IMG/VR virus record: IMGVR_UViG_2671180456_000014
Direction: 5' to 3' (one strand)
DNA: 7,879 nucleotides
DNA from: a virus
Lineage: Duplodnaviria; Heunggongvirae; Uroviricota; Caudoviricetes
In this document: in pieces, positions 280 to 7,879 of the stretch
Layout of the letters: every line of letters begins with the position of its first letter
Numbering within the stretch: position 1 is the stretch's first letter
Position numbers and translations under genes: made by a program
The notes under the pieces: model-generated
Told to the model about the DNA's origin: nothing
Databases searched by the model: none
Seen by the model: only the letters and a program-made list of their open reading frames with translations

Positions 280-284
280 AATCA

Positions 285-308
285 AGCGCCCACTATGGGC
301 GCTTTTTT
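285..308 (+). terminator. Rho-independent terminator
   Basis: AGCGCCC-actat-GGGCGCT 7-bp stem (285-303) followed by TTTTTT (303-308), 6 nt after the stop of ORF 49-279. Confidence 0.65.
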
Positions 309-332
309 CGTTTCCAATACTCCCACCATAAC

Positions 333-354
333 GCGCCAATGATGGCGCTTTTTT
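333..354 (+). terminator. second tandem hairpin terminator
   Basis: GCGCCA-atga-TGGCGC 6-bp stem (333-348) followed by TTTTTT (349-354). Confidence 0.5.
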
Positions 355-525
355 ATTGTCTTTGACTCACTCCAACAACATAAAAATAAGCGCCAAAATA
401 ACGCCATAGACGCGCTTTTATATCCTTACCAGTACATACCCATTACTTAGCGCATTAACGCGCTTAAATCGCGTTATATTGCGTTATGGTGTATGGTCAA
501 TCATTGGCTTTTATTCTTGCTATGT

Positions 526-570
526 GATCCGCGTTTAATTGTCGGCGCGGATCGGCATTTTGTTTTGTTC
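526..570 (+). terminator. hairpin followed by T-rich tract (terminator-like)
   Basis: GATCCGCG (526-533) and CGCGGATC (546-553) form an 8-bp inverted repeat with 12-nt loop, followed by ggcaTTTTGTTTTGTT. No gene assigned. Confidence 0.3.
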
Positions 571-596
571 CGTATCCGCTCGCGTATTATGTGCGC

Positions 597-641
597 GTGA
601 TTTTTCACATAATCACACCACTTAATCACATATGTGATTAC
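597..641. promoter_or_regulatory. operator-like palindrome cluster
   Basis: Perfect 18-bp palindrome TAATCACATATGTGATTA at 623-640; direct repeat of the TAATCACA half-site at 610-617; inverted GTGATT at 597-602. Target gene unknown. Confidence 0.4.
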
Positions 642-768
642 GCTACGAAAGAAATCTGGATGTCTCAGGCGACGAAAGTCATCATAATTTTCCCCGCTCA
701 CCTGTCCGACAACCGCTGGTTGGATTCCACCAGCTTCCCGATGTTTTTTCTATATAAAGGCGAATGCA

Positions 769-881
769 GCCGTTTCCCGAAAAAATCCTGGCCGTTTCCC
801 GTCGGCTCATGAATGCGTTCCTCGCCGTTTCTGAAAATTTCCCTGCGGCAGCTGGTGGCTATAGAGAAAGGGCCGTTTCTG
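769..881. repeat. iteron-like direct repeats (GCCGTTTCY), 4 copies
   Basis: GCCGTTTCCC at 769-778 and 791-800, GCCGTTTCTG at 824-833 and 872-881 (last copy lies inside the gene A terminator hairpin). Same orientation and same core as the array at 4373-4501. Confidence 0.5.
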
Positions 882-886
882 GCCCT
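861..886 (-). terminator. Rho-independent terminator of gene A
   Basis: On minus strand: GGGCC-agaaac-GGCCC hairpin (870-885) followed by UUUCUCUAU; begins 8 nt after the gene A stop. Confidence 0.5.
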
Positions 887-894
887 CTTCTCAG

Positions 895-1377
895 TTACAC
901 GCCATCAAGGATGTGGATGCGGTTGCTTGCGTATACATTCAGCATAAAGTTAGCGCAAAACAGTTTCCATGTATCAACGCCAGCGGTATACGTAATGTTT
1001 TTGCATTTAATCGCATTGTTGGCGATCCGCATCCCCTGCGATACTGCTTCATCGTCGGAAAATTTGAACGACGATTGAGTTTTAATCCAGACAGAAATCT
1101 GCGTAGCGAACTCAATCAGCTTGGACTGGCAGAATCGCCCGGAGCGCACCGGAAAGACGAACGTTCCGAATCCAGAATTTACCACATACGCTTTCTCAAA
1201 TACCCGCGAGTAACGACGATTGCCAATGATGTCGCGTGCAATAATGCATTTTTCTTGTGCTGACAGTTCTACCGTCTCATTGTCGCGCCATGCACCAAGT
1301 ACTCGTTTTTCAATGTCAGAGAACGTTACAGCGATATTGCCATGTGCGGGTGCGTTTACAGTAGCGATAAAATTCAT
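895..1377 (-). CDS. hypothetical protein, 160 aa (cassette gene A)
   Basis: ORF track 895-1377; ATG at 1377-1375 preceded by AAGGA with 7-nt spacer; own promoter motif and own terminator. No family recognised. Confidence 0.6.
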   Translation of the reverse strand: MNFIATVNAPAHGNIAVTFSDIEKRVLGAWRDNETVELSAQEKCIIARDIIGNRRYSRVFEKAYVVNSGFGTFVFPVRSGRFCQSKLIEFATQISVWIKTQSSFKFSDDEAVSQGMRIANNAIKCKNITYTAGVDTWKLFCANFMLNVYASNRIHILDGV

Positions 1378-1433
1378 GATTAATTCCTTATCGTAAATAA
1401 CAAATTGTTTTCTTGTTGGTGTTAATTATCGTT
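1378..1433 (-). promoter_or_regulatory. conserved cassette promoter and 5' leader (copy A)
   Basis: Sense strand: cGATAATtaacaccaacaagAAAACAATTTGTTatttacgatAAGGAattaatcATG. -10 GATAAT at 1425-1430; C/A-rich leader with palindromic core AACAAATTGTT (1399-1409); SD. Confidence 0.5.
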
Positions 1434-1552
1434 GTACGAATAAGGCGTCAAAGTGGAAAGTTGCGGTAGCCGGACGGGAACAGGTGGGTTTGTCGGTTGC
1501 CTGGAGGTAAGAGGTTGGTGTTTTTAGCCTGCGGGAAACAGGATGGTCATTT

Positions 1553-1576
1553 AAGGCCACCAGCATTGGTGGCCTT
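1553..1576 (-). terminator. stem-loop 5 nt after gene B stop (putative terminator or 3' stabiliser)
   Basis: AAGGCCACCA-gcat-TGGTGGCCTT 10-bp stem; no clean U-tract after it on the minus strand (uuaaaugacc). Contains the Chi octamer on the minus strand (CCACCAGC at 1557-1564). Confidence 0.4.
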
Positions 1577-3214: not shown

Positions 3215-3526
3215 TCAGGCTATTGCCATCACTGATGCTCTCTGAATTTCTTGCTGGGCCACGCGGTTAACTTCCATCAAAGCCAGTTCGAGCTGATGTT
3301 CCGGCCACATTCTTTGAAATGCCATCCAGCCTTTTCCACGCTGGCGACGAACATTCATTACATAACGAGTAAAGGTGTTTTTATCGAAAGACACCGCTGT
3401 TTCACGGAACAGACGAATAGAGGTTCCATTGGCAACGATGTCCAGCAAAGTTAATTGAGCAACCAGCGCAGGCTTCTCTTTTCTCTTCTGGTCTTTGTCC
3501 AGACCAAGAACCAATGATTTTTTCAT
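3215..3526 (-). CDS. small basic hypothetical protein, 103 aa (cassette gene E)
   Basis: Start ATG 3526-3524 (MKKSLVLGLDKDQKRKEK...) with GGAG 5 nt upstream; TGA stop at 3215-3217. Lys/Arg-rich N-terminus and RRQRGKG stretch. Confidence 0.6.
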   Translation of the reverse strand: MKKSLVLGLDKDQKRKEKPALVAQLTLLDIVANGTSIRLFRETAVSFDKNTFTRYVMNVRRQRGKGWMAFQRMWPEHQLELALMEVNRVAQQEIQRASVMAIA

Positions 3527-4009: not shown

Positions 4010-4056
4010 AAAGCAATCCTTAAACAACATGTTTTCTTGATGGTGTTATTATCGCA
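4010..4056 (-). promoter_or_regulatory. conserved cassette promoter and 5' leader (copy F)
   Basis: Sense: TGcGATAATaacaccatcaagaaaACATGTtgtttAAGGAttgctttATG. Extended -10 GATAAT at 4048-4053 with TG at 4054-4055. Confidence 0.55.
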
Positions 4057-4372
4057 ATAACGCACAGGCGAAAAAGAGTTTTATTCCGGTGAATGTGGTT
4101 TTGGCAGTGAGTTTTCAGGTTCAGTACCGAGTACACTTTTTACATTATTCTGATTTAGTGGCCGAAGGTGGCTGGTGGGCAGAATAATCATCTCCCCGAA
4201 AACCTACTGAAATCGATTGTGACCCGTTGGCTGTCTGGCACAATTACGCTGTAGCTGGGCATTCAGAGGGAATCCAGCGGTAAGTAAGTTCGCCTGCACG
4301 TGAGCGCCTCTCTTCTTCCCGCACATTACAGGTGGGCAGCCGCAACTCTCCCTCACGCTATACCGGTACGCC

Positions 4373-4501
4373 GCCGTTCCTGAACCGGCATCGAGCCTTT
4401 TCCCGAAATCCACACAGGCAACTCGACCGTTTCCCTGAAAACCTCCAGCCGTTCCCCGAAGGCAACCCAGCCGTTTCTGTAGCGGGATGCAGCCTTTTCC
4501 C
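4373..4501. repeat. iteron-like array: 6 direct repeats at about 22-bp period
   Basis: Plus-strand GCCKTTYCC cores begin at 4373, 4395, 4426(7), 4448, 4470, 4492 (spacings 22, 31, 22, 22, 22). Minus-strand reading is GGRAAMGGC. Confidence 0.6.
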
Positions 4502-4559
4502 TGTATGGACCGAAGGCTGACCGTAGGGGTGTTACGGGGGATAAAATCAGGAGTTGAAT

Positions 4560-4590
4560 AAATACGAAAAAGGAGGCGACACCCCTCCTT
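4560..4590 (-). terminator. Rho-independent terminator, no ORF upstream
   Basis: Minus strand: AAGGAGG-ggugucg-CCUCCUU followed by UUUCGUAUUUAUU. Lies between the orphan promoter motif and the iteron array. Confidence 0.5.
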
Positions 4591-4623
4591 CCCTCCCCAC
4601 TTATACATACCTGTCTTGTTCGC

Positions 4624-4657
4624 TATACATGTTGTGTTTTCTTCGTGTTTTATCTGT
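4624..4657 (-). promoter_or_regulatory. orphan (ORF-less) copy of the cassette promoter and leader motif
   Basis: Sense: agATAAAAcacgaagaaaacacaACATGTatagcg aligns with cGATAATtaacaccaacaagaaaacaaTTTGTT; -10 is degenerate (GATAAA). No credible ORF before the terminator at 4560-4590. Confidence 0.35.
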
Positions 4658-4699
4658 TTCAACCTCTCTATAGGCGTTAATGCTCACTCCTTCCAGAAC

Positions 4700-5460
4700 G
4701 TTCTATACGGCGACTATTTCTGTTGGTGAATTGGGTGTGTTGTTTTCTCTGTCGGTGTATGTGGTTTCGTTAGTTTTGCGGTGGTTCTTCTATGGGGTGT
4801 TCTCGTCGTTTTGGTGATTGTTCTTCTCCGTGTATGGAGTAATGGCAGGTGGGCGATTGCTTTCGTTATTGTGTTTGAGTTGTTTGTCTGGAGTGTGTGA
4901 AAGGCTTTTGTAGTTATTCGTGTGTTGGGTAATGGCGTTTCCCGTGATTGTTATGTTTCGTGTCTTTTGGGATTGAGAGAAGCCTTGCGGTTACAGGCTT
5001 CGTTGGGGTTTCAGTGATTCTGGTGTTTCTTCGCTGTTTGGGGAATGGCGTATCGTGGGTATTGCGCGTATGAATGTTTTCGGATTGCCTGTGAAAGTTA
5101 GGTTGGTTGTCCGGTAGCCTGGGAAGAAGAGGTGGGTCTTTTCGGTAGCCTGCCATAAAGAGGTTGGTTGTTTTGGGTAATGGCATATGTGTTATTTAGT
5201 TGTTTTGTTATGCCTGAAAATAAGTTGTTTATATGGTTGTGTAACGCAACGGGAACGATTTTGAGCGTGTGTTTTTGTTGGTAGTGTGTTGGGTCGTCTG
5301 TGGTGAAAATTGGACGCTGTGGCGCTGTCTGCTGCGTAGAGTTACGGGTATAAGCAGTGATGTGTGAAAACGTCAATTTTTTAGACCAAATCGGGTGAAA
5401 GCGTTGATGTTTCGTTGATCTGTTATTCAGTTGTTTTCTTGATTGTATAAACAACTATAA
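4700..5460. repeat. strongly G/T-skewed non-coding region of degenerate intergenic-module repeats
   Basis: Plus strand is about 80% G+T in sampled stretches. Recurrent GGTAATGGC units near 4842, 4931, 5044, 5180; 5113-5185 aligns with the region upstream of promoter A (1464-1540); degenerate promoter-motif copies at 5274-5290 and 5431-5445. No credible ORF on either strand. Confidence 0.55.
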
Positions 5461-5518
5461 CTTATTGATATTTAAGGATGTGATTGCGGGTATGGAAGGG
5501 GAGTAGTGGCGATCAACG

Positions 5519-5538
5519 GATTCTTATAGAAAAGAATC
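5519..5538. other. inverted repeat downstream of gene H
   Basis: GATTCTT-atagaa-AAGAATC 7-bp stem; no U-tract on the minus strand, so not a canonical terminator. Confidence 0.3.
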
Positions 5539-5564
5539 AAATTGTGACCGCCATTATCAATGTT

Positions 5565-6805: not shown

Positions 6806-7879
6806 TTACTTAACCTGGTGGCCTGGTTTAGCACCAGCATCCGGGCTTAACAGGAAGATATCTTTCCCGCCGGGGCCAGCAGCCATCACCATGCCTTCGG
6901 AGATACCGAAGCGCATTTTACGCGGTGCCAGGTTAGCCACCATAATGGTGTGACGACCAATCAGTGCCTGTGGATCTGGATAAGCGGAACGGATGCCTGA
7001 GAAGACATTACGCTTTTCACCGCCGAGATCCAGCGTCAGGCGTAGCAGTTTGTCAGAACCTTCTACAAACTCTGCGTTTTCAATCAGCGCCACGCGCAGG
7101 TCAACTTTGGCGAAGTCGTNNNNNNNNNNNNNNNNNNNNNNNNNNNNNNNNNNNNNNNNNNNNNNNNNNNNNNNNNNNNNNNNNNNNNNNNNNNNNNNNN
7201 NNNNNNNNNNNNNNNNNNNGTCAGGCGTAGCAGTTTGTCAGAACCTTCTACAAACTCTGCGTTTTCAATCAGCGCCACGCGCAGGTCAACTTTGGCGAAG
7301 TCGTCAAAGGTGATAGTTTCCTGAATCGGGTCGTCAGCCAGTGGGCCAGTTACCGGTGCGGCTGTGGCTTTCACTTCTTCTTTGGATGCTTCCACCAGTG
7401 CTTCAACCTGCTTCATATCGATGCGGTTATACAGTGCCTTGAACGGATTCACTTTATGGCCCAGCAACGGTTGCTGGATGCCATCCCAGGTTAGTTCTGT
7501 ATTGAGGAATGCCTCTGCACGTTCAGTCAGTTTTGGCAGTACCGGTTTCAGGTACGTCATCAGCACGCGGAACAGATTAATGCCCATAGAGCAAATCGCC
7601 TGCAGATCGGCATCGCGTCCTTCCTGCTTCGCCACCACCCACGGAGCCTGTTCATCGACATAGCGGTTAGCCAGGTCAGCCAATGCCATGATTTCACGGA
7701 TAGCTTTACCAAATTCGCGGCTTTCCCATGCTTCGCCAATCACTTCAGCGGCATCAGTAAAGGTTTTGTACAGTTGCGGGTCAGCCAGTTCGCCTGCCAG
7801 CACGCCGTCAAAACGCTTGTTGATAAAGCCTGCATTACGAGAGGCCAGGTTAACCACTTTGTTCACGATATCGGCATTC
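6806..7879 (-). CDS. metG: methionyl-tRNA synthetase, 3' portion (runs off window; interrupted by assembly gap)
   Basis: Minus-strand translation gives ...[105 protein letters not shown], which I recognise as the enterobacterial MetG C-terminus (tRNA-binding domain). TAA stop at 6806-6808. The apparent frame change is fully explained by the 100-N gap plus 85-bp duplication (185 bp, not a multiple of 3). Confidence 0.9.
7035..7304. repeat. 85-bp exact duplication flanking the gap (7035-7119 = 7220-7304), assembly artefact
   Basis: Identical sequence gtcaggcgtagcagtttgtcagaacc...ggcgaagtcgt on both sides of the N run; collapsing one copy and the gap restores a continuous metG reading frame. 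Confidence 0.9.
7120..7219. other. scaffold gap (100 N)
   Basis: Run of exactly 100 n characters. Confidence 0.97.

Follow-up and report, generated by a model that had tools for sequence, protein, structure and literature searches.

Two helically phased repeat arrays in non-coding backbone DNA of SSU5-like phage-plasmids as probable protein-binding sites

Iterons of Rep-type replicons, whose usual layout is known from P1, F and RK2, are among the closest described counterparts of the repeat arrays analyzed here. Like the iterons of P1 (incC/incA), F (incB/incC) and RK2 (oriV), these arrays consist of short asymmetric direct repeats about 22 bp apart, with 3-6 units per array and two same-sense arrays 1.5-4 kb apart, and they change in copy number by whole units. 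Unlike them, the SSU5-type arrays are found without a recognized initiator gene adjoining them, a clear AT-rich unwinding element or a DnaA box. A motif repeated at two phage sites kilobases apart is also known from P4 (ori/crr) and SPP1 (oriL/oriR), where, as in the present case, one of the two sites is non-coding and apart from the gene of the initiator. The initiators known there are P4 alpha and SPP1 G38P, and no homologue of them was identified in the phage-plasmid. Centromeres far from the par operon occur in another phage-plasmid, N15, at its sopC-like sites, but these are palindromic. Repeat arrays for ParA-type systems, with the arrangement in two clusters as a further common point, are also present in R1 (parC) and pB171 (parC1/parC2), where, in contrast to the arrays described here, they adjoin the par operon and comprise more units, which are contiguous.

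A further comparison was provided by scanning viral contigs for two motif copies 21-23 bp apart, and the matches fell into SSU5-like elements, glycine-rich coding repeats and a lambdoid prophage family. In these prophages (L022 7120-7300; L011, L026, L029, L043, L118 and others), for which the closest deposited phage is Klebsiella phage ST405-OXA48phi1.2, iterons of the form GGATTCGGC-N6-GCCGTTTCC lie inside an O-like initiator gene neighboured by CII-like and repressor genes. The lambda-type origin of these Klebsiella prophages shares the identical 9-mer GCCGTTTCC, repeated at 22 or 44 bp, with the SSU5-type arrays; however, the prophage units are dyads within coding sequence, whereas those of the SSU5 type are non-coding and lack the matching arm. 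By analogy, the prophages would show that arrays of this 9-mer can act as origin iterons. The match itself is best read as analogy and not homology, being limited to the 9-mer that was searched for. The SSU5-type arrays are neither dyad iterons within an O-like gene nor accompanied by an encoded O-like initiator, and a captured lambdoid O-type origin was rejected since dyad arm, O homologue and flanking similarity are all missing.

In this study, we analyzed a stretch of 7,879 bp (hereafter the window) from the IMG/VR virus record IMGVR_UViG_2671180456_000014. It is 98.5% identical to Escherichia phage Cyrano (pLF82) with 100% of the query covered. E. coli plasmids of about 108 kb match it along its entire length at 98% identity, and it shares synteny with Salmonella phage SSU5 and Klebsiella relatives. 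Near-identity, synteny and the combination of phage structural genes with repA and parA assign it to the SSU5-like elements; the window is conserved backbone of such a phage-plasmid and not the island for which a preceding sequence-only reading had taken it. The 108-kb element encodes terminase, capsid, tail, DnaE, a DnaB-like helicase, primase, ligase, repA (plasmid position 1-1056) and parA, and almost all genes lie on the same strand. In the window there are small genes without an assigned function, most of which have a promoter and a terminator to themselves as well as a palindromic operator AAACAAnTTGTTT. This 13-bp palindrome is present eight times in the window (1398, 1883, 2633, 3538, 4022, 5218, 6658 and 6709) versus about one copy expected, and across the element (L002/L003) it is located about 20-40 nt 5' of start codons, e.g. 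those for the DnaB-like helicase, parA, terS, nrdB and an S24 peptidase. It is probably a global repressor operator or an element of 5'-UTRs that many genes share. Among clinical Enterobacteriaceae, SSU5-like phage-plasmids are frequent, with about 4% of the complete E. coli genomes carrying one. Resistance genes such as CTX-M-15 and dfrA51 are also found on them. Their lytic replication, segregation and early-gene control have hardly been studied to date. The only iterons mentioned in a paper on IncpKPHS1 plasmids are those that follow repA (PMC6735626), and our literature search found no published description of the array sites reported here.

Exact copies of GCCGTTTCY are located at 769, 791, 824 and 872, as the sequence-only reading had listed, and a fifth one at 4470, all on the plus strand; 0.20 copies are expected by chance, and none of 200 shuffled sequences gave five. 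Relaxing the motif to SCCKTTYCY added copies at 4373, 4395, 4448 and 4492, which together with ACCGTTTCC at 4426 give a six-copy second array. Cluster 1 (767-835, plus strand) contains three phased copies (769-777, 791-799 and 824-832) with the consensus cAGCCGTTTCCCgaaa and start-to-start distances of 22 and 33 bp, and cluster 2 (4373-4500, plus strand) contains copies starting at 4373, 4395, 4426, 4448, 4470 and 4492 with distances of 22, 31-32, 22, 22 and 22 bp. These spacings are whole helical turns. The spacing of about 22 bp (two turns) that is typical of Rep-type iterons, which are direct repeats of 17-22 bp, is thereby present, and SSU5 and Klebsiella relatives show equal phasing. At 48 bp from its neighbour, the copy at 872 does not share the helical phase, and it is probably optional or just incidental. 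The core of the short repeat GCCGTTTCC is CCGTTTCCC.

In the 108-kb plasmid, the relaxed motif is clustered only at the two arrays, and its isolated matches comprise four outside the stretch equivalent to the window and one within it, at window position 3329 inside a gene. An unbiased scan of the whole element for local k-mer arrays recovered cluster 1 and the RepA iterons and gave no further iteron-like array, only single low-count k-mer matches in coding or terminator sequence. The RepA iterons (ATCCACTATAGAGAG, spaced by 21 and about 41 bp) are found on both sides of repA, at a distance of about 35 kb from the arrays. Since they differ in motif and place, we conclude that the GCCGTTTCC arrays serve another protein and are not RepA iterons, which sit beside repA. 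A coding repeat was likewise rejected, because RefSeq has no CDS annotated over either array, indels comprise 22-23 nt and there is no conserved ORF. The sequence GGCTATAG, common to the parA promoter palindrome, was dismissed because it is not above chance frequency and not kept beyond the E. coli lineage.

Both arrays lie 3' of a minus-strand hairpin, in keeping with the arrangement proposed earlier. Next to cluster 1 this is the intrinsic terminator of gene A (864-892, minus strand; -19.6 kcal/mol, U-rich tail), in which the copy at 872-880 occupies part of the stem plus the loop. The sequence-only reading had the last copy form the stem itself, and the geometry that it gave proved correct. 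The terminator stem is kept by compensatory changes (GGGCC/GGCCC vs GGGGC/GCCCC). In L070-type relatives, the loop has changed to GTCTC, and the relatives L130 and L132 have an unrelated hairpin without an iteron, i.e. the 872 copy is not conserved as an iteron. Gene A (895-1377, minus strand; 160 aa, phrog_1641) has no assigned function and always adjoins cluster 1. Its promoter (1398-1451, minus strand) consists of TTGACG (1451-1446), a 17-nt spacer and TAATTA (1428-1423) and carries the palindromic operator TAACAAATTGTTT at 1398-1410. In the minimal relatives L074 and L091, gene A and gene F (3215-3526, minus strand; 103 aa) are the only genes between the arrays, which are there 1.5 kb apart. 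Our analyses did not identify gene A or gene F as DNA-binding, and no Rep family, recombinase or transposase domains were found in the neighbouring genes.

Next to cluster 2, a hairpin with T-run (4566-4593, minus strand) is located 66 bp from the array in matching orientation, which bears out the orphan terminator of the sequence-only reading. It folds well in the E. coli and Klebsiella lineages and weakly in SSU5 (z = 0.3). Between array and hairpin, a conserved block GACCGtAGGG..TTACGGGGGATAAAATCAGGAGTTGAATAAATACG (4505-4565; no strand assigned) is made up of invariant alignment columns, and a stretch of about 31 bp with 77% A+T is found at about 4541-4571. A 17-bp AT stretch is present at 743-760, but none of the most AT-rich windows adjoins either array, and no conserved DnaA box was seen. 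Each array is embedded in non-coding DNA that is conserved and of complex make-up, at window positions of about 280-890 and about 4040-5560, respectively. The part left of cluster 1 (window 280-760; counterparts in L008 3660-4060, L130 8700-9160 and L132 6690-7110) contains several hairpin terminators, with AAGCGCCCACTATGGGCGCTT present twice among them, and short repeats of the TTAGCG/TAACGC type that appear as AGCCATTTAGCG units in distant relatives; an 18-bp palindrome TAATCACATATGTGATTA at about 612-632 and a hairpin at 525-554 are also located there.

The sequence-only reading had suggested that the surroundings of the two arrays are copies of one module, with gene A as cargo in the first and with the second one empty. 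Aligning 650-1600 against 4250-5500 supported the relationship in part. The iteron units of both modules are 73-78% identical over 32-37 nt and agree in strand, in their 22-bp phasing and in a core of 10-15 nt. In addition, a second repeat family is shared: module 1 has two to three 30-bp repeats of the form CGGTAGCCnGG-N8-AGGTGGGT (1461-1553, plus strand), and module 2 has 30-bp repeats of the form CGGTAGCCTGG-N8-AGAGGTGGGT (5100-5174, plus strand), for which TRF gave an equal 31-bp unit in SSU5. Between module 1 and 5112-5174, 63 nt are 75% identical (E 6e-8; period 30-31 bp). The CGGTAGCC..AGGTGGGT repeats are located about 600 bp right of the iteron array in both modules, occur in the 108-kb plasmid at these two loci only and are kept in SSU5 and Klebsiella. 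They were rejected as ops-like elements of RfaH (ops element GGCGGTAGnnTG) because they are on the wrong strand relative to the genes. The third shared element is a promoter-proximal box GTTGTTTTCTTGATTGTATAAACA (5430-5453, minus strand), which is common to the cassette promoters. The alignment of the modules gave no homology beyond the iterons, the 30-bp repeats and this box, which means that module 2 is not the gene A module with its cargo removed.

The place of gene A in module 1 is occupied in module 2 by a non-coding segment (4594-5340) that is GT-rich on the plus and CA-rich on the minus strand and may correspond to a minus-strand transcript of about 780 nt. On the plus strand, its GC skew is +0.4 to +0.5, its AT skew -0.4 to -0.6 and its G+T content about 75%, and it contains repeated TTCTYCGTGTRTKGRGTAATGGC units. 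This supposedly empty segment is conserved: its anchor-to-anchor length is 813-860 bp across lineages that are just 63-67% identical, and it has a promoter of its own. The latter, P2, is of the sigma-70 type (5348-5376, minus strand; TTGACG 5376-5371, 17-nt spacer, TTATAC 5353-5348) and has identical hexamers and spacing in SSU5 and Klebsiella. Given this conserved promoter and the hairpin at 4566-4593 downstream of it, a CA-rich transcript of about 780 nt starting at P2 and ending at the hairpin is plausible. The skewed segment has no conserved ORF, neither it nor the rest of the window gave an Rfam match, and a structured RNA was rejected for the segment since the covariation term was about 0 on both strands.

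Essentially no SSU5-like plasmid of E. coli lacks the arrays, and they extend to Salmonella, Klebsiella and relatives further away; both were found in SSU5, Klebsiella phages, PhiR41_1 and about 45 IMG/VR contigs. Alignments of 27 and 26 non-redundant sequences show little or no change in the cores of copies 1 and 2 of cluster 1 and in most of those of cluster 2, whereas the spacers drift; differences in copy number amount to whole units of 22-23 bp. The distant relatives L130 and L132 retain CCGTTTCCC in both arrays, with gene A being 51% identical in one of them and detectable in the other by profile search only (E 1e-17). Since the site is invariant while gene A diverges, its binder is expected to be encoded elsewhere or to be a host protein. 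A search of complete E. coli genomes gave 239 records for the cluster 1 region, 244 for the cluster 2 region and 240 for the terminase gene, and all of these matches are on plasmids, none being chromosomal. The cluster 2 region is present in 836 PLSDB plasmids from Klebsiella, Escherichia, Enterobacter, Salmonella, Citrobacter and Cronobacter. A fragment match in large Klebsiella IncFIB/IncHI1B plasmids was set aside as a 455-bp remnant without functional clue.

The two clusters are thus phased, conserved and non-coding, and they are the only clusters of this motif in the element. With a probability of roughly 0.85, we consider both of them functional phased binding-site arrays of the element backbone, the binding of a protein being deduced from the sequence pattern. 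As to what they do, a bipartite cis-acting replication element other than the RepA origin is the reading that we tentatively prefer, at clearly less than even odds. One highly conserved, sequence-specific DNA-binding protein would load on both arrays, and the loaded protein could pair them, as at P4 ori/crr, SPP1 oriL/oriR and P1 incC/incA. The arrays would then represent a second, lytic-phase origin plus a distant enhancer or control array, each paired with the CGGTAGCC..AGGTGGGT repeats about 600 bp away inside the conserved non-coding region. We favour this replication role because unit size, number and spacing are Rep-like, because two same-sense arrays enclose a short segment, because they sit in large conserved non-coding regions with promoters, and because phage precedents exist in P4 ori/crr and SPP1 oriL/oriR, which also have an equal motif at two sites kilobases apart. 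Furthermore, the element encodes DnaE, a DnaB-like helicase, primase and ligase, so a lytic origin besides the RepA origin is expected. The succession of cluster 2, conserved block, 77% A+T stretch and inverted repeat resembles an origin by analogy.

Several observations argue against the replication role. No initiator gene was recognized between or beside the arrays, in contrast to Rep-type arrays that adjoin such a gene, and repA has its own unrelated iterons. A homologue of the O-like protein of L022 was not found anywhere in the plasmid (tblastn, best E 1.7), and neither array seems to have a marked AT-rich unwinding element. GC skew was uninformative for locating an origin as it tracks the near-uniform gene orientation, and a replication role does not account for the consistent position of the arrays just 3' of terminators. 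A more specific version, possible but slightly more doubtful, would combine the arrays, the CGGTAGCC..AGGTGGGT repeats and the 0.8-kb skewed segment into a lytic origin or another essential bipartite maintenance site, served by a binder of a fold new to replication, which might be the product of gene A or gene F.

The main rival to replication is partition: the arrays might be remote centromeres for ParA and a 117-aa partner protein, or plasmid-pairing sites, similar to N15. ParA (PF13614/MipZ/CbiA; phrog_164) is encoded and followed by a translationally coupled 117-aa protein with a basic disordered N-terminal tail and, judged by eye, a ribbon-helix-helix-like pattern, so that an ATPase and a small candidate partner are both available. 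Among phages of Escherichia, Salmonella and Klebsiella, the 117-aa protein is conserved at 89-98% identity, matching the invariance of the sites. The par operon has no repeat array beside it, the element contains no unassigned arrays other than the GCCGTTTCC clusters, and the copy number of the phage-plasmid is low (5.5 per cell; PMC9928086). On the other hand, the par operon is about 40 kb away from the arrays, and the palindromic operator AAACAAnTTGTTT at the parA promoter offers an alternative target for the 117-aa protein. Type Ib centromeres normally adjoin their par operon, and ribbon-helix-helix centromeres usually comprise many contiguous units, whereas there are just 3 and 6 sites here, with 7-11-nt spacers between them. 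We regard partition as rather unlikely. A role in transcription, in which either a bound protein backs up the two terminators as a roadblock or insulator or the array regulates the next cassette promoter from upstream, appears less likely still. It would explain why a minus-strand terminator hairpin is followed by an array within 30-70 bp in equal orientation in all lineages, with one copy overlapping the terminator in the E. coli lineage, and it would suit a region of dense, independently promoted and terminated cassettes under a common operator, where the next cassette promoter is located about 250-300 bp downstream of cluster 2. However, nothing is annotated or conserved downstream of cluster 1 on the minus strand, a roadblock needs fewer than three to six phased sites, the terminator overlap is not conserved among relatives, and the CGGTAGCC..AGGTGGGT repeats as well as the 0.8-kb skewed segment are left unexplained.

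The proposal of the sequence-only reading that the arrays are direct repeats marking recombination or mobilization ends of a cargo segment is very improbable on the present data. It could refer to the inter-array distance, which is 3.6 kb in the window and ranges from 1.47 to 4.2 kb among relatives, and to Klebsiella-type relatives in which similarity to the window sets in again at 747-769, where cluster 1 has its left edge. Yet among several hundred plasmids, no variant has the inter-array segment excised with a single or hybrid array left, and both arrays were found in every relative examined. The length changes between the arrays are gains or losses of whole promoter-ORF-terminator cassettes, and the endpoints of these indels coincide with cassette promoter and terminator repeats (window 1577/2017, 1863/2184, 1936/2622 and 4030/4037). 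Cassettes are also replaced outside the arrays, to the right of the second one (window 5566/6345), and therefore the arrays are not recombination ends. In addition, the arrays are just about 75% alike over 32-37 nt and no recombinase adjoins them, the sole integrase being about 50 kb off (plasmid 18.2-19.3 kb). Chance clustering, or a decayed remnant of a lambdoid O-type origin or a coding repeat, could draw on the presence of the 9-mer in O-type origins and glycine-rich coding repeats elsewhere, and on the total of relaxed motifs in the plasmid, which is 15 versus about 13 expected by chance (own calculation). The conservation data effectively refute it. Ten same-strand copies lie within two stretches of about 130 bp and are helically phased, conservation is core-specific and extends across genera, there is neither a dyad partner arm nor flanking similarity to O genes, and no conserved ORF covers either array, with indels of 22-23-nt units.

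As far as can be judged from these comparisons, the locus appears to represent an iteron-type array away from any recognized initiator or partition gene. A conserved, element-specific array provides a handle for mapping a second origin or centromere and the protein that reads it, and the arrays could give a target for incompatibility or curing as well as a family-specific diagnostic marker.

Some further features of the element were observed. Near-identical terminator hairpins at 1551-1577 and 2023-2049 (wider repeats 1546-1584 and 2017-2055) flank small-gene cassettes, and it is at such flanking hairpins and promoter blocks that cassette gains and losses among relatives have their endpoints; the small-gene cassettes look like a recombination-driven variable gene array. 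Five Chi sequences (GCTGGTGG) are present in the 7.9 kb, at 851-858, 2036-2043 and 4171-4178 on the plus strand and at 727 and 1557 on the minus strand. Of these, the 851 copy, located between iteron copy 3 and the terminator of gene A, has been retained in the lineages of both E. coli and Klebsiella. The gene for the 117-aa protein (L002 30960-31313, minus strand; CYRAN_29 of Cyrano) is annotated as RelE/ParE toxin in Cyrano, but its product looks like a ParG-type partner rather than such a toxin.

Left of the window, the element carries a homologue of FljA, the phase-1 flagellin repressor (PF03614, E 1.5e-84; L003 18561-19085, plus strand), which is an RNA-binding regulator carried by the phage-plasmid; the plus-strand operon of this gene ends at window position 279, and a weak Hfq-like match was also obtained. 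At the right end of the window, a host-derived pair of housekeeping genes, full-length metG and divergent apbC, is present (window 6806-7879 on the minus strand and beyond; L001 14790-18081), with chromosomal E. coli metG giving matches of 90-95% identity in more than 5,000 records. Within metG, positions 7120-7219 are a run of 100 N whose flanks (7035-7119 and 7220-7304) form an 85-bp duplication, the sequence after the gap restarting at the equivalent of about 7035, which looks like a scaffolding artefact and not like biology.
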